64,000 nucleotides of DNA from Amoebophrya sp. A120 (GCA_905178155.1 CAJINV010000004.1:1518784-1582783), one strand, 5' to 3'; positions 9,936 through 50,000 are shown, numbered from the stretch's first letter. A program made the numbers and translations. Notes: a model not told the origin generated them from the letters alone.

Positions 9936-12900
9936 ATGTTGGATCGTACCTTTCGTGGGCAGGTTTTTGTAACAGTGACAGCGCTCTTCTTTTTCACGAC
10001 TCACCATCAACATGGCATTTCGGGGGTGAGACTCGTAGCCGCGGTTTCTCGACAATTGTTATCCACTGCAAATGTGTCTGGGTCTGGAAGTTTGCAAGAC
10101 CTATAATGACGCTTGCTTGCTTGAGAGGAGAGAGAAGTCTGTCGTGCGTGATCTTGTGCTACAGGGTGATCCTTGAAAGAGCTTACTTTTCTCATTACCA
10201 AAAAACGCAAAAAGAATTGTACTTCATTTGTTTGTCGTCGTCGTGCGAAAGGGCACGCTTGACGTATTTTTTGCCCAGAAACTTGTCATGCTTGTTGCTC
10301 AACGTCAGCCGCGCACGAGCATTACAATTTTCCCAATAACCCTGACACAATATTTGCAGTTGATATTTGTGTCGCAGTTACGATTGTCCAACTGCAGAAG
10401 CAGACAGCGGGGCCGGCCTGGGGAGTCCCATCATGGTGACCAGCACCTATCCAGGAAACGAATTGGTCGATTGCACGACCGGCGATGATCCTGGGGCTTT
10501 ATCTCCTTGGTGTACCCAGGAATTGTGCTGCACAGGAGCTGATCAGAGTGTGTCGACGACCGATTGCGGGGATTTCTGCGGCGCGCTGAAGGACTCTAGT
10601 GACAAAGTTATGGGTGTCGCCACTCACATTTACTACAATCCGCACCGTTGCACTGCGTTTTCGCTTGCGCATGGAGATTGGTGCAGTATGAAAAAATGTC
10701 AGTGCGAGTGCAACATCGGGGGGGGGTACCGCCTGGATCCAGAAAAAGTCGCCTATACCTCTCTTCGAGACTTGCGCAGCGACTGTAAGCATACTTGTGC
10801 GGATGAGCCTGCTGGTTTCTGTACTGACAAGAAGTATCTGCCGAAAGACGGCTTGGCCGCGATTAGCTGTAATGGAGCGGCGTGCACGGCTGATGAGTGT
10901 TGCAAACCGACCTGCACAGCTACGGATACTACAGCCCCCAGTAAAGGAAGCTATTCATGTGGATCTCTTGCTACTCCTAAAGTACTGTCATCCGACGCGG
11001 CGGGGAATCTCATCGCCTGCAGGGAAGAGGCTGATGCTACTGCATGTCCAGCAGACACTGATGCGTGCTGCATGGAACAAACCTGCGCGAAGTATACTTT
11101 TGACGACGCTTCAACGAGCTTTGCTGCTTTCGGAGGTACTTGTGGTAGCAGTGCCATCGGTGACGCCAGTTTATTGAGTAAGGCCAGTCCGGAAACGATC
11201 CCCTGCCCCTCTGGTTGCACCGAAGTTGAATGCTGCGACGGACCGACTGTCTGCCGCGACGTCACATGCACTACGAAGGACTTTGTTGTTCCGAATGGAA
11301 GGCTGAACAAGCAGTGCGCGGTCAGCATTCATGAGGGTACGTTCGTCGAAGATTGCCAAGGAACCTGCTGCACTTCCACAACGTGCGCAAGCGAAAGCGC
11401 AAACGAACAATTTAGCTGCAATAACAAAGGACCAGACGGGACTGACCTTATCCTCCGGGAAGATGCCGCCAGCATCGGCTGCGACGATGGCGTATTCACT
11501 GCAAATCAGTTTGGGTCTTCTAGGAGCTTGTGATGCTTGTTCTGGTAGGCTGGAGAATCTTCACGAGGACGCCTTCATGGACGGACAAGCATGAAGAAAA
11601 CGTACTACTAGGCGTTGGCCATTCTGCATGACAAATACTTAGCGTTTCAGCGTGACAGAAAAGCGCGGTGCTTCGGCAACGTGGATGGGATTTTAGTTTT
11701 CAATATAAGACTCGTGCTAGCTGCCGCGTATGACAGCCCTTACATTCTTTCCCCAGACCCTGAAATATTTGCAATCCATATCACGGGTGCACACGGGCTT
11801 TGTGCTGCCGTGGGGCTTACTGCGGGGCGTGCCCGCACGGCGTCGAGGGGGCGTGCACAAGTGACCTGATCGGCCTGCCCAACTGCCAGAGTTGTGACAA
11901 TGGCTATCATAGAGTCGTGACCCCAGGACATGGAGGCTCATACAGTTGCCAGCCGAACGTGTGCCTTTGTAGCTACGGCACCCCCGACACCGGCACCGAC
12001 TGTGTGACTGATTCGGTTACGAGCTGCAAGCTAGGCAGTTGCTACGACGGTTACAACATGGTGATCAATGCGAACAATCGGCGCGAATGCGTTCCGAACG
12101 AACTGTGCAAGGACGGTTTTGCGGCGGAGTCCGAAGTATCAAATGCAAGAAATATGTTGTTCGGGTCTGGAAGTTTGCAGAAAATGTATGTCATTCATCC
12201 TCTGCAATAGATGGATGAGCTGGAATGCCGCATGAGAAACTCGCAGCTGTTTACGTACCAAGAAGTGGTCAGCTGTAGCCCTTCGAGAGTTTGCTGCATC
12301 ACTTCCAGAGGACCCACACGTATTTGCAATTCATACGAAGTGCAGTGTCCGGCGGGCACGTCAGTCGTGATGGGCACCGCGGCCACCCTTCTGCGGTGCA
12401 GTGCAGCAGCATGCACCAGTATGGCAGTGCACAACCCCCCGTCCCCCTCATTGGCCATGCAAAATGCCAAATCCAGTTGCTACCTTGTGACACTGTTTGC
12501 ATGCTGCCAGATTCTGAAAACCCAAAGAGTACTACACTCGGCGCACCAAGTACGTGTCATGCACCGCCTCCACGTGTGTTGGTGTGTCTATTGCTGTTCA
12601 TGCAATACAGATGAGGGGGAGCTGCAGGGGAAGTGCACTTTGATAACCTGTGCCGACGATGCTGCTACCTGCTGCGTCAGCGATTGGAGTAGTTCGTGCG
12701 CCGTATCCTGAGTGAAGACTACGTCGTCACCCCAAACTTTTCATGCACGTTTGCATCTACAGGATCAGGAACATCATCAACATTTGTGATGCGCATTCCC
12801 GTGAGACGCGTTTCTAATCGTGTTTCGGCATTTGTATTTTCAAAAATAGTTTAAAAAAGGCGAAGCAGACGGCGATGGCTATGTGATGCGGCCGTCCACC

Positions 12901-15900
12901 CTCTCCCTATCCTTGTGTTGCCGAGGTCCCGAGGACTTGACTTTGTGTTGCAGAGGTTCCACTCTGGATTTATGTTGCAGAGGTCCCAAGAACCTGATAT
13001 TGGGCTGGGGACGTTTTTACACAGAATACGCCGCCGCGGCCGGAAAGGAGGAAATCACCTGCCCAGCCGTCAACGGCGCGGCGCGCGTCATCGATTTTTT
13101 CGCTAAGTGCGACGTATCCAACAGAAATAAAATACACCCATCGTCGCAGAAAAAAAGTCTATTTGTGCTGCCAAATTGGCGTGAATGGCAACTCTGGACT
13201 TCGAAGACCACAAGAGTGGCAGTTTGCTGCGATGCGTGTGCATGTGCAGCGGCTTGTTGTAAATGTGGATTAGCGACAATTAATGACCCTATAATCAGCT
13301 GCAACACAGTTTCACTATACTTAGTGCTTACCTATTGCGTTTTTAGTATGAAAATGGGTTTACTTGTTTTCTGTGGGATACAACGGCGCCACCTGCACGC
13401 CTAGCGAGTGCTGCGTCAATGCGCCGTTGTGCGCGACGCTGACTTGCCCGGCCGCGAAGCCGCTGAATCGCGGCCCGAACGTGAGTTGTGCGCTGGCGAC
13501 CGGGTGCGAGGTTCCCGAATGCTGTATCAAAATGAAAATCCTTCTCGTCATACTCAAAGTGGAATTTGTGTAGCATGATTTGTGATCACAAAGGCAGTTG
13601 TGATGCTTGTAGGGAAGAGATGCAGGAGACTGTGCTTAGTGCTGTCCGGCGCGGGTAAGCCCTGCCACTCCAGCATGACAGGAACCAACTGCATTCGCCC
13701 AGAACAGAACGACAAAGCTCCTGAAATACACAGGCCGCGAGTCTGTTTGTCCCTTTACCTTCCTAAAATACAAAGGGATCTGTGTACACAAGAAGTTGCG
13801 CACCGGAAATCTCCTTTTGATATGGGGAGGGGGATTTTTCCTCACAATATGCTGCGTGGTTGCCTCGGAGCCGTTCCGCTCGGTCACGACGTTGTCCATG
13901 GACCTGCCCGTATCCAGGTGAAAAGTGCCATATCCCCAGAAATGGAGAAAATTTCTGATGCATAAGGGTTTCAAATGAAAAATGCATGAGGGGACTACGA
14001 GTCATCTTCCTGGTCCAGAGCTGGCACTCTCGGAAGCATGTTTCACATGACAATTTTTGCAGCCGCTAGGCTGCATGGCGAATTTATGATGCTGGAGGAT
14101 GTAGGTGGATGCGGACAGCGTTTCCATTCGGAGCTTTTGCACGCGCGAGCGCCCTCCGTTTCTGAGATAGGGGTGCTTTTCACTTCCATAGTCCGCCGAT
14201 GCGGACTACACGGAAGCCGAGCTGTTGGACACACTCGGTCCCCTATCCTGTGTAAAGGCGTCCCCGCCGCATACTTGCCATGCAAATCTGCATGGGGTGT
14301 TTCGGAATGTGTCATGTTAGAACTAGGATATGCTGCTGAGCGATTTATCATGCAGCCGCACTAGCTAAACACGACTACACTTCTGCAAGCCCAATTTATT
14401 AATTTGTTCTGCGCATTGCACATAGCTTGTGGGTCTATTGCGTAGCAACGACGTGTCCACGATCTTGTTGACTTTCGGGCGGGGCTTTTTTTCTCAGGAT
14501 ATCCCAGCGTGAAAACCGGCCTCGAGCAGAGCATCCGTGCCGTCGCACCGGCGGGTTCCGTAGTCCAGGTCGAGATCATTTCGATCACCTTATCCTAAGG
14601 GAAATCGTCCCTACCCCAGAGTTGTAATGCAAAACGGCTTGCCTAAAGTAAAAGTAAAATCAAAATGTTTCCCATGCGCTGCAACCCAATGAAGGCATCT
14701 TCTATAATCTAATGCTGTCTGGCAGCCTGTCAGGCTACATATCGCGATGAGATGATGATCGATTTGTCTGTAAAATGCGGCTGCACCGAACCACCAACAC
14801 CATGACACTAGGATCCCAGACTTGTCATGCGCCACAGCCGGCAAAACTTGTTAATTTCTTTGTGTAGCCAAAACCCGGCAGGAGTCTGAGTCACTGCCCC
14901 TCTCCTTTGTTTGAATCACTTCCCCACGCATCACCGCCCGATCCGGATCAAGACCCCACCTCCCCCGCATCACCTCCGGCAGCCGGCGATGGACTTGGTT
15001 GTTTAGGGTCGTCTAGGGCCTAGGGTTCGAGGTTTCGGGTCGCTCCGTCATGCCGCCCCCCCCGTCCATCCTTTTCCGCCTGCCTTTGGGCCTCGGCTTC
15101 TTCCTGGCCCCCAAGTTTCATGCCCTGGCCGTGTCTGCGTGCCGTGTGTACTTGCACTTTTGCGCGCCCCGCGTGCCGTTTCAGGTTCGTCATCCTAGGC
15201 CTGCCTACAGACGGCGGCCACATACGTAGGCAGGCTCGCGGAGCGCAGCTGCGGGCGGCAAGGGTACTTATTACAGTGTGCGGCGGGGAAGTGGGGCCGG
15301 GCTCCCCCACTTCCCCAGCACTGCCTGGGGAAGTACTTCTTTGCCCACGACCCGAGGGGCAGCACTTCCACTTCCCCAAGGTGGGTCAGTGGGGGAGTGA
15401 TGCTTGGGGAAGTGGTTCACACCATAAACCCAAATCCCCACCCCATCTGCGTCTTGACTCTGGGGTGGGGGCGTTTTGCCTGAGGATGCATCTTCGAGAA
15501 TTCCCGCCGCCGCACGCAGCTGGAAGACCCGCACTTGGAACGCAGAGCGGTGGAAGGCGCGATTGCTGCTGGAACAACCGAAAACTATCGGGGTACATAT
15601 GCATTGTGACTATGTCTGGATCTGCAAAAGTGAAACCTGTGCTGCGGGTTTGGGAATCCTGTAAAATCTGTATCGCACCTCCATGACCAGCATCACCAAA
15701 ATTAAGCTCTGTTTTGTCATGCAAAAGCACAGTTTCTATTAATGCGCACTACACGTACACGTTGATTGTACACATCAGGAAGCGTCCTCAAGATTTGTCA
15801 TGTTTGGCTCCTGCAATCCGGAGTATGATATGCTCAGTCCCTTGGCCGCTCAGCATCGCAGGTCTCCAGACGGACCCAGACATCTTTGCACCAGTTGATA

Positions 15901-18125
15901 GTACTACTAAATCGCCGACCGAGCGACAGTACACGAGGGACAACAAGCGTCGACGAGCGTCAGCTAGTACAACCAGGTCTGATGTGCTTGTGGACTTCAC
16001 CGTCAAGGGCGGACAGGCCGAGTCCGGGGAGGACCTTCCTGTCGAGTATCGTAAGGAAAGATCCCCCCACCTCCCCATGCCCAACGGGAAAGTTTATGAT
16101 GCAGAATTCTGGTCACAAATCAGCTCGGTCTTGCAGGAAGACAACGAGTGCGCCAGAGGCTTCCGCCTCATTGTGCAAGCGATTGGGCGGAATGATCATG
16201 CTGCTCGGCGGCCTAGAGGGTAGCAGTTTGCAATTCTAAACCACTAGACTTAAACGCCCCGGCCCAGGCTGAAGATCTGGCCGCAGTGCCTTGCTGCAAG
16301 ACCACAGAGCGTACTTCCGTGTGAAGGCAAGTCCAACACTAGAAACTCCGTTTGGGCCGCAATATGGGGAGGGGGGATTCATTTTCCTCTTGATATCAGG
16401 GAGCTGGTGACAAGCCTGCCCGCTGCCGATCTCGAGGCTGCGATTGCGGACGCAATCGAGGCGAACTCAGCGACGCTGCCCGAAGGCGTGAGCGTGGCCG
16501 ACGTGGTTAGCGCACCCGCGCCGCAGAGCGAGACCAGCACCCCCGTGTCGTATCAAATGTACTTAAAAATGTCTGGGTCTGGAAGAGTCATGTTGTTTTT
16601 GCATGACACAGAAGGTCTGGCATGGAAGCTCTAGCATTACAGGTATCGAGAAGCTTCCGCAATGCCGAATCCGCGTGACAAATCCGCCACTTTGGTGACA
16701 GAAAGTGGGCAGCGCTTGCTACCCATGCATGAGAGATTTTTCTGTGTTCTGAAATGCGCATCACAAGTTTGTATTCTTCCAGACCCAGACACTTTTGCAT
16801 TTGATACGTCGGGCAACGCACCAACTACCACGCGAACCACCGACACGAATGACGACGAAGATGAGGAAACTATCGTCCTTGTCTTTGTTCTCGTGGGCGC
16901 CGTTTTGCTAGTGATGTTCCTGTTTTCGATGGCGGTGTGGCGCCAGAAAAAGCACGAGGAGGCAACGCGAAGATACATGCAAGCTTACAACCGCGACGGT
17001 TCGTGGGGAACACAATCGGGGAATAAAATGTGGAAAGGTGGTATCCAAGAAAAAAACATTGTAGGTGTAACTTTTTTGGAGGAACAGCATTACAAATTTG
17101 TCTGGCATGACAGCAAAAACCTGTCATGCGCAGATAGTACGTGAAAACGCCCTTTAATGGGAGCTACGATGCATGCCAAGCATGACAGACGCAATCGTCT
17201 TGCAGGTTGCGCATGACAAATTTACACTAACAACGTTTTTTTCTTGGATAGGTGGTAAGCAGTACGGGGGACAGCGTGCAGCTTGGGATATATGCATTGC
17301 AAGTGTGTCTGGGTCACCTGGAAGAGTTCCAACTTGTGATGCTAAATCTCGACCAGACGAAAATAAATCTGTATTGCGTGAGGGTGCCAAAAGGCTGCTT
17401 ATTTTTCGCTTGCACAATTTGCGAATTTGTCATGCGGGGTAGGCATGATCAGGAACAGGAAGCCTTGGCCTTCGCAACAAAACCCATATAGATAAATGCT
17501 TCACGTGCATTCCAGAGCACTCATTTGTTCCAGCAGATGCATGACAAACTTTACTTCCAGACCCAGATATGTTTGCATTTGATAAAAACAAGGCAAACGA
17601 GGCTACAACAAGAACGAGCGCTGGCACTATGGCGCCGGCGGTTCTTCCCCGAGCTCCGGCGGGAAATGGGGAGCAGCATTATCAAATGCAAAAATGTCTG
17701 GGCCTGGAAGAATGCAACTTGTGAAGCTGCATTTGGATGTCTAAAAAATTTGTGTTGCATGAGCAGCAAAAGATTTCTGAATTTTGCTACGCGGAGAGGG
17801 CAGCTGTCATGCGGAATAGGCGTCAAGAACCCCTCAAAAAACCTGTGGCGCTAGGGCATGCATCACAGACATCATGGCTCATGCAAACCGTGCATCACAA
17901 GTCTCAGAGTCTTGTTCCAGACCCAGACATTTTTGCATTTGACAAACATCAAAGGGAAAGAACAAGTGGGCAGGAGGCACCAGTCCGGCTACGCCTCCCC
18001 CCGTGCGCCCGAAGAGCCCTGCGCCGGGGCTTTTGGGACAAGGGAACAAGGGCAGTTCTTCGTGGTCCCCGCATCCCCAGGGCATGCCGGGGAAAGGTGG
18101 CCTCCTTGCCAGTTGGATTTATTAA
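9936..18125 (+). CDS. Cys-rich type-I membrane (surface) protein, paralog 1, 16 introners; alternative in-frame ATG at 9804
   Basis: Hydrophobic leader; repeated Cys motifs such as CTADECC; TM IVLVFVLVGAVLLVMFLFSMAVW followed by RQKK; G/K/P-rich tail; exons join in frame where checked. Confidence 0.75.
10060..10365. mobile_element. Introner family A, homologous to 22448 and 24408
   Basis: TIRs; DR ATTGT/TTTGT; joins QL|CRSY. Confidence 0.8.
11493..11780. mobile_element. Degenerate introner A, shared with paralog (26490-26771)
   Basis: Joins DDG|GCTRALCC in frame. Confidence 0.75.
12137..12335. mobile_element. Introner A, shared with paralog (27131-27328)
   Basis: DR CGAAG/CGAAG. Confidence 0.8.
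12420..12645. mobile_element. Introner family G, shared with paralog (27413-27647)
   Basis: TATGGCAGTGCAC...GTGCACTTTGATA; DR ACCAG/ACCTG. Confidence 0.7.
12704..13028. mobile_element. Introner B, shared with paralog (27706-28141)
   Basis: DR CGCCG/CGCCG. Confidence 0.85.
13115..13380. mobile_element. Introner C-like, paralog-1 specific
   Basis: TATCCAACAGAAA...TTTCTGTGGGATA; DR CGACG/CAACG; empty site at ~28220. Confidence 0.8.
13525..13849. mobile_element. Introner D, shared with paralog (28367-28699)
   Basis: DR TGCTG/TGCTG. Confidence 0.85.
13911..14190. mobile_element. Introner family H, shared with paralog (28761-29027)
   Basis: TATCCAGGTGAAAAGTGCC...GGTGCTTTTCACTTCCATA; DR GCCCG/GTCCG. 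Confidence 0.8.
14244..14501. mobile_element. Introner B, shared with paralog (29081-29430)
   Basis: TATCCTGTGTAAAGGCGTCCCC...CTCAGGATA; DR TCCCC/TCCCA. Confidence 0.8.
14591..15488. mobile_element. Long introner B with internal cargo, paralog-1 specific
   Basis: TATCCTAAGGGAAATCGTCCCTACCCCAGAG...CTCTGGGGTGGGGGCGTTTTGCCTGAGGATG; DR CACCT/CATCT; empty site at ~29745. Confidence 0.8.
15598..15900. mobile_element. Degenerate introner A, paralog-1 specific
   Basis: DR GTACA/GTACT. Confidence 0.7.
16047..16395. mobile_element. Introner D, shared with paralog (33065-33431)
   Basis: TATCGTAAGGAAAGATCCCCCC...GGGGGATTCATTTTCCTCTTGATA. Confidence 0.8.
16551..16806. mobile_element. Introner A, shared with paralog (33587-33848)
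   Basis: DR TGTCG/CGTCG. Confidence 0.9.
17042..17250. mobile_element. Introner C-like, paralog-1 specific
   Basis: TATCCAAGAAAAAAAC...GTTTTTTTCTTGGATA; DR GGTGG/GGTGG. Confidence 0.85.
17291..17584. mobile_element. Introner A
   Basis: Family A TIRs; frame restored WD|QGKRGYN. Confidence 0.75.
17680..17944. mobile_element. Introner A
   Basis: Family A TIRs; DR AGCAT/AACAT. Confidence 0.85.
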
Positions 18126-20362
18126 AAGCGAAAGCCACACAAGCGCCTCGCCGGGGGCGCCGCGCAAGGGATTTCTCGACGCGCATGAGCAGGCGCCCGA
18201 CGGAAAAAAAGGGAGCCGGAGGACGATGTGAAAAAATACACTAGTACCAGAGAGGATCTGAAAAAATAAAAAAGGCAGTGAGAGGACAAGCTGCAATAAT
18301 AGATTTGGCCTGCCGGCGCCCACAGGGTAGGTTTTTTGTGTTAAAATATTTCATATGATAGTACATTTTTTTACATACACATACTTCTGTCACACATACA
18401 CCTAGAGTAGTAATTGTTCCCTCGTTTTTGATATCGATTTTTTTGTACTTATGTGATGAATTTGTTTTGAAATTATTCGGTTGTAGAGTTTTAGCCCCGA
18501 AGAACGCCCCGCATGAAAGAAAAACGGGAAAGAGCCCGTCAATACATCTCTCCTCTTGTAACTTCTTTGTTCCCGATCACAAAGTAACATTTTTTTACAA
18601 GAACCAATCTGATAGCAAGATACATCGATTTGCTTTATTTCCCGATCATATTACCATATCCATATCCATTTCAACTTCAAGACCCAGAAGACCTGCAAGT
18701 AACTTCACAGACATCAACCCTTTGGACGAAGAAAAGACACCGAAGTCCCCGCGCTAGCGAGCAAACCAACTTTGCTTGTTTGCTGTAGGGCTACGGTTCT
18801 AGACCACCGGCTGACTACATGCATCTAGAAGTTCCTTTGCTGGTTCGACTCCGCTCTGGCACGAAGAGAAATAATGTTGTCCCCGTGAGGAACGAATGCT
18901 GCCCCGAAGACCGCCCCGCGTGAAGGAAGAACGAAACTATACCCTTGAGTGTCACGCTTCTCTCTTCCTCGAACTTCTTTGTTTCCAACCAAAATTATAT
19001 CACGTTCCCCCGACCAGCAATCTGGGTGATAGGAAGATGCATCGATTTTGCTTTCGTGTTCCCAACATTTTCATCATACTCATTTCAAGACCTAGCCCTA
19101 CAATGAGCTCCTCCACATCAACAGTCAACCCGGACGAAGGGAAGACAAGGAAGAAGTCCACCGACCCCGCGCTAGCGAGCAAACCAATCTGGTCTTTCTG
19201 TGCCATGGTGCTAGATCGACTAGTTCCACGTTGTTCCTTTGCTGATTGTTTCTTTCACCCCGCTGTGGCACGATGACGAGTAAAAATCCAGTCCTCCTGA
19301 GCACCAGTCAGAACATCCTCCTGAGCACCTGCAATGGGTTGTGCGAAACTGGTACACAAGACTAAGTACTGCCGAATGCGTGCGATGAAGCTGTGGCGCG
19401 TGCATATTCTGCAATACAGATGAATGTCTTTGCGCTTTTTCGGAAAATTGTATATGTTACTCGCTCAATCCTTGTGTTGTCATGGGTGGCGAAGTGTCTA
19501 ACTTACATTTGCCTGATTGTGATCATTGGAAATAAACATAAAGTAAATGGAGTTGATCTTGATGAAGATGAACAGGACTTTGGTTCTTTGCAATGCGGAA
19601 AGAAAACGGATCTGGGTCAGTTGGAACGCTGTGTCGTCCACGCCCTGTTCTGCGGCTGCTTGTTGTGTTAGCAGTGCTACTAGCACTTTTGCTGACCCAT
19701 GTTTGTAAGTATGGTGCTACAAGGGCTGCCAAAGTAGAACAAGAAGTGCCATCTGCTAGCCGCATCTTTCGTAAAGGTGAGTCGTGGTGTTTTGGCACAT
19801 GATGGTGTGTAACTACGAGAAGCACATATCAATATGATTGTGATTCCCCGTTCTTTACTTACTATGCTTTTTTGTCTTCCACCACCCTGAAAGATAGTTC
19901 TCCATCGTTCGGGATCAAATCCTCGTGCGTCCGTTCGTTCATCGTTCTCGTTGCTGCCACACGTTCCGTCGTCGTCGACCCAAAATAGAATCGACGTTCA
20001 ATTCCTGATTCGTGCCGAGTATTTCCGCAATGGAAATGCAGAAGGAAGGTGTGAGCATCGTGATTTTCGCGCGAAAGAACGGACAACTCTTACAGACGTG
20101 GCTCGTACAGCCGTTGAACTGGTTGTCACAGGTCACAGGAAGAGGTAAGTACTTGATCTTATGAAAGAATGGATACACTACATCACGATCACGTCCGCCT
20201 AACAGTAACTCGTCGAAGAGATATGCTAAAGCCGCAAGAAGCTACTCGGTCCATCTTTCGAAGACGGAAGAAAGTTTGTTGAAGCTAACTATGCTGTTTT
20301 TATTAGTATGCTTCATCTCCCAGAAGGAAGTACTCGTCCCTAGTGGTGCAGTCTCGGCAGAC

Positions 20363-21498: not shown

Positions 21499-22164
21499 AT
21501 GCTGTTTTTATTAGTATGCTTCATCTCCCAGAAGGAAGTACTCGTCCCTAGTGGTGCAGTCTCGGCAGACGGCATTCGGAAGAAAAAAACGTTGCGCACT
21601 AATTAGGCAGATAAAAAAGTCACCACAAAAAAGGTCGGCTTTGCCGAGCCGAAATAGCATTCTGCGGGCTCCTGCATCTTGACAAATATCTTTAGTTTGT
21701 GTATTGTTCTTGGACTACAAGACTTACTTACAAAGTACAGCTTCCTGGCTGCCAAAGTATGTACAAATAGAGCAGTTTGTCTACCGAGTTTCGCAGTGTC
21801 CCGACCCCGACGATAGTAGAGAAGTGTTTTGTAGCTTTTCGATCTTCTATCTTTTCTTTAAAGTTCAACATTGCGGTGCAGAAAGCGTGTGAAGGTAGAG
21901 ACAATTACAAGCACTAACGTACTTCTTACGGAAGTAGGTCACAGAGAAGAAGCTTACTTACGCATTTATTACTCTGAAGCCCTGACGAATTAGAAATAAA
22001 ATGAGGCGAAGGTTAGAACAAAAATTATGTCGCAGCTTTTCTACCCTAGTAATGTCATTGCCTCGTGGAAGAGCCAGGAACGGTTGAGGACAAGGTCGTC
22101 GGAGGAAGCATCAAGGCATCTGCGTCAATCCGGATCACAATTCGTCCGAAAAACGCCGAGAACG

Positions 22165-25100
22165 ATGTTGGATCGTACCGTTCGTGGGCATGCTCTTGTA
22201 ACAGCGGCAGCGCTCTTTTTGTTCACGGCTCATCGTCAACATGGAATTGCCCAAGCCGTTACAAACTGTGCCGCAGTCTCGGACGGCGCTACGGGATTTT
22301 TCTGGGATGATGCGAGCTGCAACACTGCATTGCACCCTGATGAAGGTGTAGTGAATGATGAAGCAACATGCATCAACACTAAGGACGATACCAGCCCTGG
22401 AGATTGTGGTCATGCTGGCACATGCTGCCGCGTGGTAACACAATTGTTATCAATTGTAAATATGTTTGGGTCTGGAAGTTTGCAAGACCTATGACGCTAG
22501 CTTGCTTGCTTGACAGGAGAGAGAAATCTGTCGTGCGTGATCTTGTGCTACAGGGTGATCCTTGAAAGAGCTCACTTTTCTCATTACCAAAAAACGCTAA
22601 AAGAATTGCACTTCATTTGTTTGTCGTCGTCGTGCGAAAGGGCACGCTTGACGTATTTGCTCAGCAACTTGTCATGCCTGTTCGCCCCTTATTGGAGGTT
22701 GCTCAACATCCGCGCACGAGCGTCACAATCTTCCCAATAGCCCCGACATGATATTTGCAGTTGATAATTATGTGGTAGCTTCACGTCGTGTCCTGTAAAC
22801 TCGAATCCTATCATGGTGACCAGCAGCTACCCGCCGGCTTTGGACAGCAAACTTGTGGACGATTGCACCGATGTGTCTAGCGACACCACCTTTTGTACCC
22901 AGGAGTTGTGCTGCACAGCAGCAGGTGTGTCTCAAGATTCTTCGGATACCAGCTGCGGGGCCTTCTGCGGCGAGCTGAAGGATGCAAATGGAGTGGCTAT
23001 CGGTGTCTCCACCCACGCGACACTGAGTCAGAAACTATGCAAGAGGTGGACCCTTAACCAGGGATATTGGTGCAGTATGCAACACTGTCGGTGCGAGTGC
23101 AACGCCGGCGCGGGGTACCACCTGGTTACAGATAACGGCCTGTATTCCGTTGCTCGAGACTTGCGCACGGACTGCATAAAGCCGACGTGTTTGAAGCATG
23201 GTGGCGCCCTGGACGGTTCAGAGGCCACTGCGAACTCATTTTGTACCGGCAGTTCTTATTCCCCAAAAGACAGCTTGAGCACAATCGAGTGTCAAAACAG
23301 TCGCTGCACAGAAGAGGAGTGTTGCAAGCCGCGGACGTGTGGCAATACCGATGGAGGAAATGCGGTTTACTCGCCGTGTCCCTCAGGCTCCGCACTCAGA
23401 GCCGGCCCGGCTTATCGTGAGATACATTCTCCCCTGCCCATACTCAAGATGGATGAAATTTCCGATGCCGCTGTGTGGCCACAATGCATATTTTCGAAAA
23501 AGGCGAAAAAGCGACACACCTTACGCTCACTCTGTAGGCCATTGGACCGTAGAGCTACGTAGAACTACGTCGCACTTCGTCGAGTAGTGGTGATAGATTG
23601 CGCGCCTCTGCGCTTTCGTTCTTTTTATGGATCCGTTTTTTTGTTTGGTTTTGCGTTTGTTCGTAATGCTTGCATGAAAGAGCTCCCATTGCTGGTGGAG
23701 GCGCCACCCTGGTTGCGGATTTGGGGGGACAAGCTCTTTCATGTCGGAGCACCTGTATGCCGCTGGGAAGGAAGCGCAGCAAGCTTCTTGCTGAATTTGT
23801 CCGAATTGGCGCAGCAGCGGCCAGCTTCGGCTGCTTCTTTCCTGCGTTTTGCCTCCACATGCATAAGGACCTCCAGGGCCGTGCGTCATGTTCGAGCTCA
23901 CGACTTAAGCGCACGCCGCACGTCTGGCCCTCGTGAAGCGGGGGCCCAGACCCATGCTGCGCGTTGTAGCTGCCCGAGCCGCCTTCTCGTTGCGCCTTCT
24001 ATCACCACTCATTTTCCGAAAGGCCTGGACTTTCATGACAAGCGCTGTAGAGTTTACTCGACCCTTCTTTTTTACTGATTTTAGTCGAAGGCCGCGGCCG
24101 CCCGGACGTCCTGCCGGTAGATCACCGATGTCATACCATTCTGCGCAGAATTGCAGCCTTCGATCCTCTTTCATCCTGAGCCAGCGAAGCGTCTACCTGC
24201 TTCCCACGCCTGCACTCTGCCTTGCCTGTGTTCTGGCATGACAGAATGGTTCTTTGCGTACAGAACTCTCGCATCAGAACAGAGTTATGCATTGGAATAT
24301 GGGAGGGGGGATTTTCCATTTTGATATGAAGAACTTCAAGTGCGGCAACGACGGGTATGGAGACCCCTGTGACCAAAACCGCTGCTGCGTGGCTTTGGAA
24401 CCATTGCTATCAACTGCAAACATGTCTGGGTTTGGAAGTTTGCAAGATCTGTGATGCGTGCTCGACAGGAGAGAGAAATCTCGCACGCGTGTTGTGCACC
24501 GGGCGTGTCGATCCCGGAAAAGGAATGAATACACTTTCGAGAAAACGAAAAACGAATTGCTACAGGGGGTGGTCCCTGGTTTGTCGTGGCGCCACGAGTG
24601 GCAGTAACTTTCGGAACGGAATCCCGAAAACTTCTTCGGTCATCATCCGCTAGCACAGATGATCGATTACTACAGGCACTGGCGGCGTGGACATCGTAGC
24701 AGGGTTTCGTTAAGGTAGCTGCCTGTTTTACTGAAAAGTACCTGAGGGGCCAGGCCATGAGGTGCTAGGCGGTCTAGCAGCTCCGGAGCGGTAGGTGGCC
24801 GCGTGCCTGTTCTTCATCCGCGGCGCCAGCGCGCTTCCTTTTTAGGAGTTCGAGTTTCGGTCTCTGATTCCAAGCTCAGGGTGTTTGGGCTGCTGTTTAG
24901 TTGGGCGGTGCACCGCGGTGTTTTGTAGGGTTGCCCGAGTGATTCCTTTGTTTCGTTTGGCAGGCTGCCTTACCCCCTGGCTTCAGGGCTTGTTGGTATC
25001 GTCCTAATCTGGCCGGGCTTTCTTCCGCATTGTTTGAGCGGCGGCTTTGAAGTCCTTTTACGCGCGAGTTTGTTACTCGGCATTCTAGCGCGCCAGTAGC

Positions 25101-28100
25101 GTGGGTTTGATTTCGCAAACGCAACCCAGTTCGTCTCCCAGCACAAATATCACCGAAAAGCTTCTTGAGGCGCGCTGCTACCTGTGGCTCTGCCTCCCTC
25201 CGGCAGGGGTTTAGTTCACACGTTGAGCTGGAGGTTGCTCAATATCCGCACACCAGCACCGCAACCCTCCATTTAACTCCGAGATGTTTGCAGTTGATAA
25301 GCATGTTCCGGTGTAGATGAACAGTCCGTTTGCGGAGCTGGTGAGTCGCTCATCATGGTGCACCCCTGGGATTTCGGCGCTGTCTACAAGAGTTTTGTCG
25401 ATTGCAGTGTGGAGGAAGATATTCGCTTGACGCTGTGCAATGCGAACCCCAGCAAGCCCTACACCTACACGACGGCCTCGCCCTACGGCAAATTGGTCGG
25501 ATGCAGCAGCGCTGCAATCGACTCGCTGTGCAGGGCGGACAAGTGCTGCATGAGTAGTGCAGGCGACGACACTACAACATGTTCCAATTTCTGTGCCGGG
25601 CTGACTGGTTTCAGTAACTCGGAAGCGGACCATGCCGACATGATTTGCAAGGACCGGTACGGAGGTTGGTGCAGTGTCCAGAATTGCCGGTGCGAATGTG
25701 ACACTAGTGCGGGATTATACAAGGTGAAAGATGGAGGGTATTCCGTCGATCCGCATCCGCGACTCGCTACGGACTGCGAGGCGGTAGTACAAACTTGTGC
25801 AACTCAGGTTGCAGATAATTTGTGTACTAGTAAGAATTATCTGCGGAAAGATAACCCGGAGTTGATCAAGTGTGCTGAAGACGCGTGCACTGAACGGGAG
25901 TGTTGCAAACCGACCTGCACAAACAACCAAGTGGTGGACGGCGGTGATCCAGATTTGGCTCTGTATGACTGCACGAGCGCCAATAAGGTTGCGAAGTATC
26001 TCAATGGGGATCTGATGGCCTGCACCAACATCGACGACAGCACTCATTCCTGTGTTGCTAACAATCCGACGAATAATAACCTTTGCTGCATGGAACAAAC
26101 CTGTGATTCGCATACTATTCGAGTCGACGGGACCACTCTCACTTATGACGATTTCCCGTGTCCGATTCATCCAATAGCTACATCACTGAAGACGGCCACC
26201 CCGCCGCCGATCACCTGCGCTTCCGCTAACGGTGGTTGCGACGCCGCGACCTTCTGCGACGGACCGACTGTCTGCAGCGATCACGAATGTACTAGCGTCG
26301 GCAAAGTTGTTTCGCAAGGAAGCTGGGACAAGAATTGCGCGCTCGCAGATGCAGCTGGTACAAATCAAGACTGCGAAACAACCTGCTGCACTTCCACCAC
26401 GTGTGCAAGCGACGCCAGCCTCTGCGATGCGCAAGGTTTCGACTTGTACCCCCGGGAAGACGCCGCCAGCATCGGCTGCGACGATGGCGTATCCACTGCA
26501 AATGGAAATCAGTCCTCTGGAGGGTCTAGAATAAAGTTCTGAGGCTGGTAGGTTGGAGAAGCAATCTTCACGACGAGGACGCCTTCATTGACGGACAAGC
26601 ATGACAAATAAATTTTTGAGGTGCTAGGCGTCGGCCAATCTGCATGACGAAAAGCGGTTCATCTGCATGACAGAAACGCGCGGCGTGTCGGTAACGTGCC
26701 TGAAGACAGCCTTGATGAGATTTGCGCCCCTTACATTCTTTCCCCAGACCCTGAAATATTTGCAATCCATATCACGGGTGCACACGGGCTTTGTGCTGCC
26801 GTGGGGCTTACTGCGGGGCGTGCCCACACGGCTTCGAGGGGGCGTGCACAAGTGACCTGATCGGCTTGCCCAACTGCCAGAGTTGTTACGATGGCTATCA
26901 TAGAGTCGCGACCCCAGGACATGCAGGCTCATACAGCTGCCACCCGAACGTGTGCCTTTGTAGCTATGGCACCCCCGACACCGGCACCGACTGCGTGACT
27001 GATTCGGTTCTTACGAGCTGCAAGCTAGGCAGTTGCTACGCCGGTTACAACATGGTGATTAATGCGAACAATCGGCGCGAATGTGTTCCGAACGAACTGT
27101 GCAAGAACGGTTTTGACGCGGAGTCCGAAGTATCAAATGCAAGAAATATGTTGTTCGGGTCTGGAAGACTGCAGAAAATGTATGTCATGCATCTTCTGGA
27201 ACACAAGATGGATGAGCTGGAATTCGGCATGAGAAACTCGCAGCTCTTTACGTACCAAGAAGTGGTCAGCTTTAGCCCCCCCAGAGTCTGCATCACTTCA
27301 GAGGACCCACACATATTTGCAATGCATACGAAGTGCAGTGTCCGGCGGGCACGTCAGTCGTGGCGGGCCCCGCGGCCGAGCTGTTGCGGTGCACTGCAGC
27401 AGTGTGCACCCGTATGACAGTGCACAACCCCCCCTGCCCCTCATTGGTCATGCACATTGCCAAATCCAGTTGCTGTCTTCGCCTTGTGGCACTGTTTGCA
27501 TGACAGATTCTGAAAACCCAAAGAGTACTACACTCGGCGCATGAACTTGTCATGCACAACCTCCACGTGTGGTGCTTATGCTGGTGTTTCTATTGCTGTT
27601 CATCTTCATGCAATACAAATGAGGCGGAGGGAAAGTGCACTCTCATAGCCCTCGCCGACGATGCCGCTACCTGCTGTGTCAGCGATTTGACCACTTCCTG
27701 CGCCGTACCCTGAGTGAAAACTACGTCGCCACCCCAGACCAATAGGGTTGTAGTCTCCTCTGTTGAACCCCAGACCAATAGTGACTCCTCTGTTGAACCA
27801 ATAGGGTTGTAGTCTCGCGAGATCTTCTCGTGAATAAATTGTAAATTGTAAATTGTACTTCTCATGCACATTTGCATCTACAGGAACATGAAGATGAACA
27901 TTTGTACTTAAAATGCTCATTCCCATGAGAAGCGTTTCTAATCGTGTTTTGGCCTGTGTATTTCAAAAGGAGTGTAAAAAGGCGAAGCAGACGGCGATGG
28001 TTATGTGATGCGGCTCTCCCTGTCCTTGTGTTGCCGGGGTCCCATGAACTTTGCCTTGTGTTGCACAGGTTCTATTCTGGATTTGTCTTGCACAGGTCCC

Positions 28101-34100: not shown

Positions 34101-36186
34101 GGAAGAGCGTTGATGGGGGTGCAGCTCCTTGGGAACAGTTCGAGGTGGAAGACATATGAAATACAAATATGTCCTCTTGGTCTCGAAGCTTGGAACTTGT
34201 AATGCTGTCTTTGGATTCCAAAAAATTATGTATTGCATGACCAGCAACAGGAGTCCAGTTTGTGTTACGCGGAGAGGGAATTTCTTACGCGGGATAGGCA
34301 TAATTAGGAAGCCCTCTAATTCTAAAAATTTGCGATGCTAGATCATGCATTACAGGCATGCATGATCATACACAATCTGCAGGACAAACCTGACAATCTT
34401 CCAGACCGAGATGACATAGTTGCATTCGATAAGACACGCAAGGCTACAACAAGTACGAGCACGAGGCGGCGGACCGGTACTACGGGCATGTATCAAATGC
34501 AAATATGTCTGGGTCTGGAAGAATGCGCGACTTGTCATGCAGCTTTTCCGTGACCCATGAGGTCTGGAATGCAGGACCTAGCATGACAGATTCTGTGCGA
34601 TCTCTTTCATGGCTCTCCTGCATGAGAAACTCCCTCCCGACTTGGTCAAAACTGGACGACTTTTGGTAATCATGCAACACAGTTTTTTGTATGCTTCAGA
34701 TCTAGCATGACAAGTTGCATTCTTCCAGACCCAGACACTTTTACATTTGATAGCATGGCGGTGACGACCATTATGATGACACTGGAGCGAGCGACCCGTA
34801 CTACGCGAACAGCTACAATTACAAGAGAGCAACAGACCAACCCTATTCCACGGAAAATAAGTGCCCCCTCGTCCCCGGAGGTTGGATAGGTTTCTGGTGC
34901 ATAAGGTTTTTATCATCAAATGCGAAACTCTTTATCAATCTATGCATCAAAGGACTAGTATGTATGAATGTTTCTCCTGCAGTAGAGTCTAGTAGGCTTG
35001 TGTTGAAGCATCCCTTGCAGCACAACAGGCGCCGCTCTTGTTGGGCTCTTTTGATGCCATACGAGTTTTATTCGGCTATTCACAATAATTTTTAAAACTG
35101 TGACTCTGATTGATACAACATGCAAGAGGGAGCAGAGTGTTTCCACGGGGAAGCTTTGCAATTATGCGAATGCTTCCACGTTCCGGGGTCGTGGGGGCCG
35201 CGTTTTCAATATGATAAACCCGGCGGTTCGACGACGTTGGGGTCGCCCGAGAGCAAGAGAGAGTCGGGCAGTGGTAAAAGTTCGCAGAAGACCTACATTC
35301 TGCGAAACAAAGACGCGAGTTCGGATTTCGTACAGGTCGTGGTCGCGGACACACAGCGGGCGGTCAAGATCTTCAACGACGCCGTTGTGGACGGAGAGCC
35401 GGAGCAATTCGGCACAACGGCGGACGGGGATCCACGCATGAAGGCGAAGCTTCAGGAGGCCTGGAGCTACAGCGACCACAGCAGCTTGGCCGGGCGGACG
35501 GTGTTGGTCAAGTACAAACACGTGGTGGAGAGCGGCACCGTATCGAGTGCAAACATCTTCACTTCTGGGTCTGGAACAAGAATCAAACCGACACTGACAT
35601 GCAGAGTGTTGGCATCATCATCATCATCTGCGGGACGAGGGTATAGTAGTTTGACATGTTGCACGTACTAGAAGTAGAGCACGATATCCTTTTTGTTCTG
35701 TTCCATGCATAATTTATTGTCTGCACGTTGAGATGAAATAGAATTAGAAATTCAAATTACGCCTTTGTTCCCCTGGAGACGAAAACCGCACAGCTTTTGC
35801 TGACCGTGGATGCATTCTACAGTTGTATTTCGTCCTCCGATGTTCGTCCTCTTCCAGATTCCCATTGCCATTCCGCATCATCATCTTCCTTCCAGACCCA
35901 AATCGAAGATATTTGCAAGGCATAGACCAATCAGACGGTTCTGGTTACGCCGTCCCCCGCGCGCCCGAAGGTCCCCTCCGGTCCGGTTCTGGTGAAGGGA
36001 GCTACCAAGAGCAGTCCATCTTCTTTGCTGGGAGGTAAGAAGGGCGGGGGCAGCACTGCTAAAAGCATGCCATCGACGAAGGGCAGCCTCCTCGCCGGCG
36101 GGAAGATGGGCAAGGGCAGCGGTGCCGGGGGCAAAAGCCGCAGCGGTTCGGCGGGGGCAGCGGCCGCGCGGAAGGGATCTTACTAG
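22165..36186 (+). CDS. Cys-rich type-I membrane (surface) protein, paralog 2, 19 introners; alternative in-frame ATG at 22027
   Basis: Colinear with paralog 1; extra duplicated Cys module; TM IVLIFVLVGAVLLVTFLFAMAVW followed by RHKK; ends ..AAARKGSY*. Confidence 0.75.
22448..22766. mobile_element. Introner A
   Basis: Homologous to 10060; DR ATTGT/ATTAT. Confidence 0.8.
23413..24326. mobile_element. Long introner D with internal cargo
   Basis: TATCGTGAG..CTCCCCTGCCCATA...TATGGGAGGGGGGATTTTCCATTTTGATA; joins GP|ANFKCGND. Confidence 0.7.
24408..25299. mobile_element. Introner A with ~700-bp cargo
   Basis: Ends homologous to 22448-22766; joins EPL|CSGVDE. Confidence 0.75.
29455..29676. mobile_element. 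Introner C-like, paralog-2 specific
   Basis: TATCCCACGAAAAAAGTGTTACAGTTACAC...GTGTAACTGTAACACTTTTTTCTTGCGATA; DR CTCGG/CTCGA. Confidence 0.85.
30128..31653. repeat. 99-bp minisatellite, ~15 copies
   Basis: Unit AGAATTGGCCAGGTGATCACCATCAGCGAAAGACGTCCGCG...TTCCGT; 33-aa periodicity in the ORF track. Confidence 0.9.
32172..32342. repeat. 30-bp minisatellite, ~6 copies
   Basis: Unit GATGACGACCATGCCGGATCATCTTCAGCT. Confidence 0.85.
32724..33014. mobile_element. Degenerate introner A, paralog-2 specific
   Basis: DR TCACT/TCAGT; joins DFT|VTGGQ; empty site at ~16000. Confidence 0.7.
34155..34431. mobile_element. Introner A
   Basis: DR AGACA/AGACA. Confidence 0.8.
34491..34752. mobile_element. 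Introner A, reverse internal orientation
   Basis: Clean TIRs; DR GCATG/GCATG. Confidence 0.9.
34844..35216. mobile_element. Introner H-like
   Basis: DR AACCC/AACCC. Confidence 0.7.
35541..35924. mobile_element. Degenerate introner A
   Basis: DR CACCG/GACCA; joins GT|NQTVLVTP. Confidence 0.7.
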
Positions 36187-38205: not shown

Positions 38206-38242
38206 AATCGATGAGGATTCCGATCTGCTCGTGCACTATCAG

Positions 38243-42073: not shown

Positions 42074-42279
42074 TATCGCAAGAAAAAACTGTTTCACTGT
42101 GAACTTGTGATGCAGCAACACAGAACTATTTGTCTTGCTACACCCGCAGCAAGGCATTGGATTTTCAGGCGTGCTTTCCCTTGGGAAGCGCGCAGAGCAA
42201 GTTTTCAGAGTCATGTGTAACAAACTTGTGATGCAGATCTTGCAAAATTGTCACAGTGAAGCAGTTTTTTTGTGGGATA
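42074..42279. mobile_element. Introner family C; host gene unclear
   Basis: TATCGCAAGAAAAAACTGTTTCACTGTGA...TCACAGTGAAGCAGTTTTTTTGTGGGATA; DR ACTTC/ACTTC. Confidence 0.85.
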
Positions 42280-47011: not shown

Positions 47012-50000
47012 ATGGAGCTGCAGCTTCAACTGCAGAAGGCGTCTTGCGCTGGCAGCAAGAGGTCCTTTCGCTCGTCCGGTGACTCCTTTGTCTTGGAGCA
47101 TAGCATGATTCTCACTAACGTCGCTTTGCGTCCGAGAAGTGGTGCGCATGTAACAGCCCGAGGTGACAGCGCACCCACCGTGCTGTGTGCGACAAGAAGG
47201 TCCTGCCCATATCCACCGGATCTGGAGCAGGATGCAGATGCGCAGCAGATGGACGTCGGAACCTGCTCCAATGGGCTGTTCTACTCCCGAAGCAGTACTA
47301 CTAGTACAACCACGGGGCCTTGTTTGGATGTCGGTGCCACTGCAACAGCATCTTCTTCGTGTGGTAAAAAGACTCGCCGTCCAGCAGCAGCTGTGATCAA
47401 GAGCGCCAGAAGCGGTGGAAAAGTTCGTTCCCCCGGGGGAAGTTCTACAAGAGCCACAACATGTGTAGGAACAAGAGGACCACATGATCTTCACGTAGGG
47501 GCACTTCTACAGCACGCGCAAGAACTGCAACCGTCGAGGAAAACGTCATCTGCCACGACTGCCTCTTCACGGCGACCGGGTGGGAAAGTTTCTTTTTCCA
47601 CCGGGGCGAAAAGACTGATAACAAGCAGAAGGTCGTTGTTCTTGTTCCACATTTTTGCAACAGGCGGAGCTGCTGTGGCCAGAAGCGTGGAGGTGCTGAC
47701 AGGGACCACAAGCAAGATGTTGCTCATGTCCTCGCTCTCGCCGTGGTCCTCGTCCACCGTGCTGCCCGTAGGAGCGAGTTATCCATCCGAACCAGAGCAG
47801 GAACTGCAGCCGTGGCTGACGTACTTCGAAACGAGCGATCCAGACTGCTGGAGCAAAAACAAGCTGATCGACTGGGAGCTCTACCGACGGCAAATCTTCG
47901 ATGCCATCAAGGACGTGCACGACCTGCGCTTGTTGCGCCTGCCGTCGGACTTCCAGAAAAACTGGATTTTCGTGCTGAAAAACTTCTCCCTGGCGCTGCA
48001 GGAGTGTCCGCTGGGCACCATCGCGTCCTCGACGCTGGCCGCCGCCTGGCAGCAGAATCGGTGATATCCTGTGGAAAAACGTGCCTACACAAACCAACAA
48101 GGTTCGGCTGTCGCGCATGAAAGCTACCTACATTGGGGTCGCAGTTGTGTAAAAATCTTGTTTAGCTAGGCGGGTAGCTCTAGGTCTAGCTGTGCCACAC
48201 ATCGACCGCTCCATGAAGATCCTGCGGCTAGCATGGCAAACTCCCGAATAGTAGCATGAGAAAGCACTTCGCATGTTGTGGCTGCGCCTGTTGAGACACA
48301 TTCCAGTCAAGGCGAGTAGCGTGACAAACCTGGGGTGGGGACGTTTTTACTCAGGATGGGCAGCCGGTCGAGGCGAATCTGGTGGAAGAATTTCCCCTGT
48401 ACTTCCTGCAGACCCCCTACGAAAGTGCACGACAACCACTCCCCTTCGTTCTCATTTCTCATGCAAAACACCAACTCCATCTCCACAGCTTCCCTCCTGT
48501 CACTATCATGCATGACAGGTTCTCGTACTCGTTGCAACATCTTCCCAAGTAGCACTACACTCCTGCGCAAATTTGTCATGCGAAACTTGCATAAATTTAA
48601 ATATCTAGCATTCTTCTTGCCGACGCTTGTGTTGCTGTTCATCATGTTTCACAAACTTAGGCGAGAAGTTGCAGTTGTGCACTCTCATACCCTTATCCTG
48701 GAGCTAGTCGGCCGCGACGTGGTGGAGCTGCTCCGTTTGGTGAATTTCCGTGTCTTGATCACGACCGAGTGGCCCCTGTTCAAGATTTTGTGCCACCTGA
48801 ACTTTTATCAACTGTAAAAATGTCTGGGTCTGGAAGGATTCAACTTGTCATGCTGATTTTGGATCCTAAAAAAATCTGTATTGCATGAGCAGCAAAGAGA
48901 GTCCAAGTTTTGCTACACGGAAAGAGCATTTGTCCTGCGGTATAGGCATCAGGAAGCCCTCACAAAATCTGTGATGCTAGGGCATGCATCACAGACATCA
49001 GGAGTCATGCAAAATGTGCATGACAAACCTGGCAATCTTCCAGTCCCAGACATTTTTACATTTGATAACTTTGACCAGGCCCTGCAGGCGTTGGACGAGA
49101 ACAACGGCCCGCAGCAGTGCGGCGAGCTCAGCGTGTCTGGGTATCCGAGCCAGTTTATCCTCGACACTATCAGGAGCAAAAACGTCTCCATCCCACTCCC
49201 AGAGTTGTCATGCAAGTTTGCTGTTGCAGGAATGGAATGGAACATTTGTAGTGTTGTAAACAGGATAAGGAGACGGCTCTGTGATGCGGCGGTGCTTGCT
49301 AAACTGCACCATAAAACAAAGAGGAGCTTGTCAACAAGCGTGACAACTCCCGAAACTTCTTGATTTGTGTCGCTAAGATCCCAACTTGTGACTCTGGGGT
49401 GGGGAGCGACGGTTTTGCTCAGGATGGACGCGATCAATTCCTTCACGTCTTACGCTGAGAACAAGGGACTGCAAGCGGCCAAGTTTCTATCGTAAGAAAA
49501 AACTGCTTCACTGTAAAGATTTTGCAAGTTTTACATTACAAGTTCACTACACATTACAACGAAAACTTGCCATGCGAGGATCCTAAGGGAAAACACCGCT
49601 AAAAATCACTTGTCTTGCATGTGGAGCAAGACAAACACTTCAATGATGCATTTTCTGCATTACGGGTTTACAGTGAAACAGTTTTTTCTTGCGATAGTTT
49701 CTGAAGGAGCTAGATCCCATGATCTACGGCATCATGAAGGACCCCCGGGAGTTCGGCACCGTTTTCCTCACATCCTGCCCCTCCGGCGCCCTCAGCATCG
49801 CGACCGTGAGCTGCATATCCACAGTACTTGAAACGCCCCCACGAGCGGAAAGTGACTATCATGGGGACTACTACCTTGCTAGTTAGTGCACAAGTCAACC
49901 AGTTTCAATATTGGCCGTGATGCATCATGATGACGAGCTTGGGCTGCTCGCAGTGCAAGTAGTCGCGTTCAGCTAGTGTAGCCTCGTCAGAAATCGAGCG

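Follow-up and report, generated by a model that had tools for sequence, protein, structure and literature searches.

Where, within the short direct repeat (DR) that flanks each introner element, does Amoebophrya sp. A120, a marine parasite of algae, cut its transcripts? We address this question in a window of 64,000 nucleotides (GCA_905178155.1 CAJINV010000004.1:1518784-1582783; the whole stretch of DNA analysed, numbered from its first letter), which is crowded with elements of 140-900 nt that end in TAT-N7-AAA...TTT-N7-ATA. The introns very probably obey one fixed 4|1 register, in which the intron starts 1 nt before the TAT and ends 4 nt after the ATA. With k denoting the number of bases of the left DR copy that are retained in the exon, this register corresponds to k=4. 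Introns given below in the form start..end lie on the + strand.

The window elements are the A120 introner elements of Farhat 2021 (PMC7789003). That report, in its accessible portions, to which our use of all papers cited here is limited, describes inverted repeats of 8-20 nt with TAT, 7 nt and AAA, a resemblance to miniature inverted-repeat transposable elements (MITEs), and a hairpin proposed to join the exons. Our elements come from the same organism, as the deposited A120 proteins P0001 and P0002 are 100% identical to window exons, and they have the same TAT-N7-AAA terminal inverted repeat (TIR), a border DR, removal from the transcript and family structure, in a host where U1 is undetected. 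The accessible text of the report gives DRs of 3-5 nt, calls the splice site 'variable' relative to the hairpin and states that the border 'remains unknown'. In contrast, we observe a DR of 5 bp, a single register, and protection of the U at intron position +2 (U+2) and the A at position -7 (A-7, the first A of the terminal ATA). The register may have been anticipated in part by one sentence of Farhat 2021 and by its Figs 3, 4, S19 and S23 (S19 has 5-bp DRs and predicted exon borders).

Our catalogue started from 85 hand-paired entries, from which 52112 (unsettled pairing) and 53811 (a canonical intron) were removed and in which elements 27413, 32724 and 53004 were re-paired. The resulting 83 inverted-repeat elements have a median length of 279 nt and a total of 27.6 kb; 45 of them lie within 11488..48363, the range of the original prediction. 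TIR pairs number 61 in the real window and 1, 0 and 1 in three block shuffles. Excluding the nested element 5992 and the apparently intergenic element 42074, TAT is found at the 5' end of 72/81 elements and ATA at the 3' end of 72/81. The DR is perfect in 30/82 elements, and 54 family matches among the 83 elements reveal repeated families. When metagenome contigs were searched with one TIR, 129 loci (L001-L129) were recovered from one related, non-identical assembly; as these were chosen by exact TIR match, they are biased toward young elements. Locus L062:503-1223 matches window 39163-39895, upstream of a gene, at 82%, which indicates that the assembly represents a different but related genome that shares the introner families of A120. 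This second genome holds 318 elements with a 5-bp flanking repeat, at a mean identity of 0.907 and perfect in 236/318, whereas repeat lengths of 2-4 and 6-9 give identities of only 0.25-0.32. The elements are MITE-like transposon insertions with a 5-bp target duplication.

The transcript evidence comes from contigs of run X1, presumed to be RNA, compared with window positions 10300-30000. The 17 joints comprise 11 rows read directly, one row split in two, one row reassigned to the paralogous element at 33065, and three joints between adjacent pieces of a single contig; two cross-paralogue rows were left out of the count. All 17 skip precisely the element plus 5 nt. The register k=4 fits 17/17 joints, compared with 11 for k=5, 10 for k=3, 9 for k=2, 7 for k=1 and 6 for k=0. 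Over the 13 informative introns, the chance of such a fit with random k is 1.8e-5 (k 0-5) or 3.3e-3 (k 3-5).

Three of the joints are exact, one directly and two through an exon length. The intron at 17290..17588 consists of an A, element 17291-17584 and AAAA; its DR is decayed (GGATA/AAAAC), its ends are AT..AA, and the joint 17289->17589 leaves no slide and is exactly 4|1. The introns at 23412..24330 (element 23413-24326, TT..AA) and 24407..25303 (element 24408-25299, CT..CA) also have decayed DRs. A contig piece ends at 23411 and another starts at 25304, and the 76-nt exon between the two elements forces k=4 at both; the protein comparison described below allows k 4-5 at the first and k 3-4 at the second. 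Joints allow k 4-6 at 12419..12649 (element 12420-12645, GT..CT) and k 4-5 at 16046..16399 (element 16047-16395), which is one of the 4/81 introns with GT..AG ends. Adjacent pieces allow k 4-5 at 22447..22770 (element 22448-22766), where the cut is unchanged although the predicted stem extends 2 bp into the DR. The cross-mapped joint at 33064..33435 (element 33065-33431) fits this paralogue only, also with k 4-5. At 14243..14505 (element 14244-14501) and 15597..15904 (element 15598-15900) the joints allow k 0-4 and rule out 5|0. Outside the 17 joints, a piece ending at 11492 requires k of at least 3 for the intron at 11492..11784 (element 11493-11780, DR 3/5).

Joints of this kind could in principle be reverse-transcriptase template switches between DRs across the hairpin, or could stem from DNA of an element-free strain. 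DR-flanked hairpins are a classic template-switching substrate, and X1 is listed as RNA by guess only. However, the exact joints at 17291, 23413 and 24408 occur where the two DR copies match at only 1/5 positions, the reading frames require removal of the elements, and the exon pieces contain 0 other letters. The gene at 47600-55335 provides a further comparison: over 47500-55400, runs X1-X3 leave the unique exons of this silent gene uncovered, whereas in X5 all of the bins (30/30) are covered and the contigs continue across the elements. Because the cover of X1-X3 is absent where that of X5 is continuous, X1-X3 behave as RNA, while the DNA holds the elements. Taken with these observations, an artefactual origin of the joints is very improbable.

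Protein sequences lead to the same register. Once element+5 nt is removed, the reading frame is open in all eight genes or parts of genes that we modelled, which carry 71 elements. Two of them, gene B (modelled part, 10370..18120, +; 15 TIR-element introns) and gene C (22027..36186, +; 19 TIR-element introns), are tandem paralogues encoding a Cys-rich single-pass membrane protein without a Pfam match. Gene B reads 978 codons without a stop once element+5 nt is taken out at each site, and likely-RNA contigs join its exons. Gene C encodes the deposited A120 protein P0002, with which its k=4 model from 22231 is identical from residue 69 to the end. The junctions of P0002 are fitted by k=4 in 19/19 cases, by k=3 in 16 and by k=5 in 15, and P0001 allows k=4 at 6/6 of the junctions open to test, out of 12, the other six being affected by the faults of the deposited model described below. 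In the gene at 47600-55335, a nucleotide-diphospho-sugar transferase (PF03407 in its A25 orthologue P0003) for which our search returned no A120 protein, two predicted introns single out k=4. At 48064..48362 (element 48065-48358, AT..CA; without RNA cover) only k=4 yields the Trp of P0003, and at 54500..54777 (element 54501-54773, CT..CC) only k=4 yields its Lys. The P0003 comparison allows k 4-5 at 48418, 49168 and 50242 and k 1-5 at 54242, while 51190 and 53004 carry no information on k. A GAT start at 50240 was considered for one of these elements and rejected, as it breaks the frame relative to the orthologue, whereas the TAC at 50242 fits. Genome-wide, the nine commonest non-canonical pairs of A120 in Table S4 (PMC7789003) all have T in second place (GT, CT, AT, TT) and none starts with TA, as expected from the N+TAT that the 4|1 register predicts.

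A candidate intron at 52121-52376 has a perfect 5-bp DR and ends in TTG...ACA, keeping U+2 and A-7; its removal plus 5 nt joins the frame as in the A25 orthologue. An apparent excess of synonymous DR mismatches was dropped, since it amounts to 18/33 in the second genome and to only 4/21 in the window.

The original prediction had proposed an intron of 1 nt, the element and 4 nt on other grounds, and this geometry is borne out at the 17/17 transcript joints and 19/19 P0002 junctions. Where DR copies are mismatched, one register fits the offsets relative to TAT/ATA at all readable joints. The coordinates and sequences on which the proposal drew are correct. The empty paralogous sites are also as it described and retain the left copy at 13115, 14591 and 32724 and the right copy at position 5 of 29455. 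For 13114..13384 (element 13115-13380; joint k 2-5), the left CGACG and right CAACG compare with CGGCG at the empty site 28223-28227, which keeps the left base at position 2. For the predicted intron at 14590..15492 (element 14591-15488, 3' end ATG; no joint among the matches listed), the empty site 29742-29746 reads CACCT, identical to the left copy and differing from the right CATCT at position 3. For 32723..33018 (element 32724-33014, 3' end ACT; protein k 4-5), left TCACT and right TCAGT compare with TCACC at 15997-16001, with the left base at position 4 and a position 5 unlike both copies. For 29454..29680 (element 29455-29676; contig letters k 0-4), left CTCGG and right CTCGA compare with CTCGA at 14521-14525, which agrees with the right copy at the fifth position. 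Among L001-L129 the search for empty sites found none.

Two further lines of that proposal fare less well. It had taken in-frame joining across fully decayed DRs at 11493, 23413, 24408 and 61300 as evidence for the register. The DRs of the last three are indeed decayed (1/5 match), but that of 11493 matches at 3/5, and in-frame joining has no bearing on the register: every k from 0 to 5 removes an equal length and preserves the frame. At the predicted intron 61299..61661 (element 61300-61657) the frame is accordingly open at all k, with k=4 and k=5 giving the same peptide. In this test, stops arise at 48065, for k=5 as had been claimed and for k=3 as well, and at one site in gene B (k=0).

Several points weigh against a single register. 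All transcript joints derive from the contigs of a single run, which is taken as RNA by guess only, were drawn from 15 of its 25 joints and 8 of its 291 pieces, and come from a form of data that conceals minor alternative cuts. The deposited proteins are gene models, probably based on RNA of the same organism, and hence no independent check on the contigs. Stops in the second genome (3, 1, 2, 1, 1 and 2 for k 0-5 over 60 mismatched elements) leave k undiscriminated. Finally, 16 junction predictions for the gene at 47600-55335 were fixed beforehand and compared over 47500-55400, and 0/16 were read, as X1-X3 do not reach its unique exons; the joints listed there, 15 in number, are all repeat misjoins of X5, with 80 further joints unlisted. 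In the comparison over 10300-30000, the raw-read RNA runs X7-X9 cover repeats only (1-2/30 bins). In a rival version, 4|1 is dominant but real alternative cuts occur at a sizeable minority of introners, or families have registers of their own. The 'variable' wording of Farhat 2021 and the inverted repeats placed 1-5 nt from splice sites in its Fig. 3 and Fig. S23 legends (PMC7789003) speak for such a mixture, as do the loss of rare forms from contigs, the exactness of only 3 joints, and the location of gene A elements 4351, 4710 and 5393 (odd DR) and 5080 (perfect DR) outside the P0001-testable set. We nevertheless consider it unlikely, as k=4 is excluded by 0/17 joints, 0/19 P0002 junctions and 0/6 P0001 junctions, across several families, and as the sliding of 5-bp repeats in an aligner yields a spread of 1-5 nt.

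The cut is independent of the terminal dinucleotides, as had been proposed, and also of how well the two DR copies agree. Among the 81 elements, the donors are GT in 36, AT in 18, TT in 14 and CT in 13, the acceptors include all 16 dinucleotides with AG in 8, and GT-AG occurs in 4/81. In the second genome, 188 elements whose strand was called from their flanks have A in 54, G in 54, C in 45 and T in 35 at +1, at a flank G content of 0.293; 16/16 acceptors occur, and GT-AG is found in 4/188. The elements thus differ from introners with canonical splice sites, defined by GT/GC/GA and AG that are carried or recruited from the target-site duplication (TSD). U12 (AT-AC) introns have an RTATCCTT donor, an AC or AG acceptor and minor small nuclear RNAs (snRNAs). 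Any base at +1 and all 16 acceptors are incompatible with this class, and minor snRNAs are reported absent in A120 (PMC7789003).

The suggestion that left DRs preferentially end in G, giving a GTAT donor, is not upheld. The tally itself is close to the earlier 18/34, at 24/45 within the same range, but right copies end in G equally often (24/45), and among discordant DRs G is left-only in 3 and right-only in 4. Over the window, G occupies DR position 5 in 36 left and 38 right copies, or 28 and 30 of 71 after removal of 10 paralogous duplicates. We rejected G at this position as a donor signal: the window excess (34 vs 23.2 expected of 71, p 0.005, paralogous duplicates included) is present in both copies, and the second genome has 54 vs 56 expected. 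Drift toward AG in the intronic DR copy is likewise not seen (4 gains vs 2.8 expected, p 0.29), and in the second genome none of the target positions between -9 and +14 deviates clearly from what codon usage predicts. A phase-0 excess is present under 4|1, with phases of 33/17/21 in the window (p 0.05) and 86/48/54 in L001-L129 (p 0.001), for which a frame-calling bias is possible; it coexists with no recruitment of exon splice sites and no target preference.

Orientation places the signal within the elements. In the window, 17/54 family matches are reverse-strand inside + strand genes, and in the second genome the searched motif is at the 5' end of 33 elements and at the 3' end of 28. As the same families occur in both orientations in both genomes, the signal lies in the symmetric ends.

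The original prediction had the cut measured from the base of the hairpin. The fixed offset holds, but the reference point is the terminal TAT/ATA, partly read as sequence, and not the predicted end of the stem. When the elements are folded in context, the terminal U:A pair has p>0.5 in 39/78. The predicted stem extends 1-2 bp into the DR at 16047, 22448, 13115, 29455 and 16551, and the terminal pairs are predicted to be weak at 17291 and 17680, yet every joint skips element+5 and is compatible with k=4. The register is constant while the predicted stem varies, which sets the TAT/ATA position apart from the thermodynamic stem end as the reference.

Transposition and pairing treat the two ends alike, so any difference between them with respect to the transcript is expected to come from splicing. 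We counted changes confined to one partner of a pair in 260 elements, comprising 189 strand-called elements of the second genome (detector blind to terminal triplets) and 71 independent window elements. U+2 is the only changed partner in one case, compared with 11 cases for A-5, with which it pairs (p 0.006). For A-7 there are two such cases, compared with 16 for its partner U+4 (p 0.0013; a ratio of 8:1 in both sets). Changes are evenly spread over the middle terminal pair (5:9), and the AAA/TTT positions, which serve as control, have 31:22. The protection of A-7 runs opposite to pairing logic, in which A>G keeps pairing and U>C breaks it, and opposite to what an A>G strand bias would give. 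U+2 and A-7 are thus conserved beyond their pairing partners, as far as these counts indicate, U+2 more weakly, and the terminal motif appears to be partly read as sequence.

This pattern suggests a route out of the transcript. There is about an even chance that the elements leave via a U2-type spliceosome of relaxed requirements, which takes its measure from the element ends. The paired inverted repeats would bring the ends together, replacing the undetected U1; the TA of the TIR would land on the canonical donor positions +2/+3, with G+1 dispensable; the A at -7 could serve as the branch point; and distance from A-7 would define the 3' site, with AG absent. As the 1 nt and 4 nt add up to the length of the 5-bp duplication, the element is removed seamlessly whatever the target sequence. 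Background from A120 is compatible with this route, as U2, U4, U5, U6 and 83/89 spliceosomal proteins are present and U1 is undetected (PMC7789003). A fixed branch-to-3' distance has precedent in Yarrowia, Trichomonas and Giardia (PMC2483917), and processing of non-GT/AG introns by the U2 spliceosome in Fritillaria (PMC13326754). The full set of components, a spliceosome free of G+1 and 3' AG, paired ends in place of U1, a branch at A-7 and a 4-nt acceptor ruler, is a tentative proposal to which we give somewhat less than even credence.

Several observations tell against a spliceosomal route. The bases upstream of A-7 vary, unlike the WCTRAY branch consensus, and the conservation of U+2 and A-7 bears only indirectly on a branch at A-7 and on U2/U6 dependence. 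The stem is itself a prediction, with a terminal U:A probability above 0.5 in just those 39/78 elements. Moreover, a stable stem would bury positions +2 to +6, with which U6 must pair. The U+2 count is biased by the seeding of the window catalogue on TA starts; taken by itself, the second set shows 1:5 (p 0.22), with about five of its variant rows resembling mis-called ends. Splicing is also stated to depend on particular first and last base pairs (PMC13326754), yet here any base occurs at +1 and -1.

The same register could instead be produced by a protein endonuclease bound to the TIR stem, with cuts 1 nt to its 5' side and 4 nt to its 3' side; an RNA ligase would then join the exons, by tRNA-splicing or Ire1-like chemistry or by machinery such as that of euglenid nonconventional introns. 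Such a route would account for the unconstrained +1, -1 and -2 positions, for the symmetric signal that is present in both orientations and for the undetected U1 (PMC7789003), and in Euglena, where such enzymes are suspected, geometry (N3-CDG...CH'G-N5-6|R) directs the removal of hairpin introns, which are reported to occur as circular RNA (PMC12501133). On the other hand, the register sets TA exactly on +2/+3, the best protected of the 3' bases is an A at a distance like that of a branch point, the cut departs from the predicted stem end, and no candidate enzyme is in hand, no search for one having been made. We regard this route as possible, though not probable.

Several known systems share features with the A120 introns. 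Like these, euglenid nonconventional introns are transposon-like, with paired ends, slidable DR borders, no GT-AG and a set distance to the cut (PMC12501133, PMC11282704), and their border was also solved through non-slidable introns, by the same logic as here (PMC12501133). They differ in using CAG/CTG, 3 + 5-6 nt and a purine-first exon, compared with TAT/ATA and 1 + 4 nt in our elements. The euglenid signature N3-CDG...CH'G-N5-6|purine is not found in the window, where the exon begins with a purine in 55/82 cases. The lineages are unrelated, so the likeness is convergent. The introners of Micromonas, Aureococcus, Polarella and Symbiodinium (10.1101/2020.10.14.339549; PMC11282704) share the TIR origin, a TSD, seamless removal and, in some classes, both orientations; however, they carry or recruit GT/GC/GA and AG and their frame can shift, whereas the A120 elements recruit nothing and their frame is fixed. 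Fritillaria borealis likewise has MITE-derived introns without GT/AG, processed by a modified U2 spliceosome, but there U1 is retained and AG-AC/AG-AT is preferred (PMC13326754), while here the ends except +2 look unconstrained. Yarrowia, Trichomonas and Giardia also place the 3' site at a short fixed distance from the branch A without a polypyrimidine tract (PMC2483917), as our putative branch would, but they keep ACTAAC and AG, and A120 has neither.

The elements, the hairpin and the loss of U1 are already known (PMC7789003), and the geometry has a precedent in Euglena. In the accessible parts of the introner literature (PMC7789003, PMC12130899, PMC11282704, PMC12005148, PMC11453091, 10.1101/2020.10.14.339549), in a search that left most subscription journals outside, we found no statement of the 4|1 register or the protected bases.

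Some elements are unusual in themselves. Element 29884-32670, the longest (2.8 kb, perfect DR), is removed in the model that matches P0002 and contains a 99-bp tandem array, a 30-bp array and an inner inverted repeat (29915-30008/32451-32544). In the two repeat-derived frames of this element, the only ones scanned, we found no transposase match and no credible Pfam domain, and Rfam gave no match within the window. Element 5992-6457 is nested inside element 5761-6482, and element 42074-42279, with a perfect DR, lies outside all modelled genes. At element 4351-4640, the right-flank 5-mer recurs on the left 3 nt beyond its expected place, as if one codon had been gained.

The host genes record the history of these insertions. 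About ten insertions are common to genes B and C and several are copy-specific, which indicates that elements moved both before and after the duplication; seven pairs of common insertions lend the register slight support. In gene A, at 2131-2751, two elements flank a 6-nt micro-exon (2414-2419), and a two-intron model is open for 681 codons. P0001 omits this micro-exon, differs by one base from the two-intron model and ends early in another frame, and it is probably mis-annotated (frameshifted) at the omitted exon. The product of a short gene at 37605-38597, with three elements, presumably resembles a cold-shock domain.

Non-canonical introns make up ~65% of A120 introns, and their borders have been read as unprecedentedly variable (PMC7789003). 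A single N|TAT...ATA-NNNN| register reduces this variability to a single rule, combined with the slippage of aligners within a repeat of 5 bp, and if true, the rule would account for most of these introns. It would also correct gene models such as the apparently frameshifted P0001. The fixed register accounts for the invasion of coding sequence by a transposon without target preference. If a spliceosome free of G+1 and AG is at work, any insertion with these ends and a 5-bp duplication would at once become a seamless intron, wherever in the coding sequence and whichever way round it lands, and this reading makes a prediction at nucleotide level, a branch at A-7. Either outcome would be informative, as an alveolate would have either a spliceosome that works without G+1 and AG or a second, Euglena-like case of structure-guided mRNA splicing.

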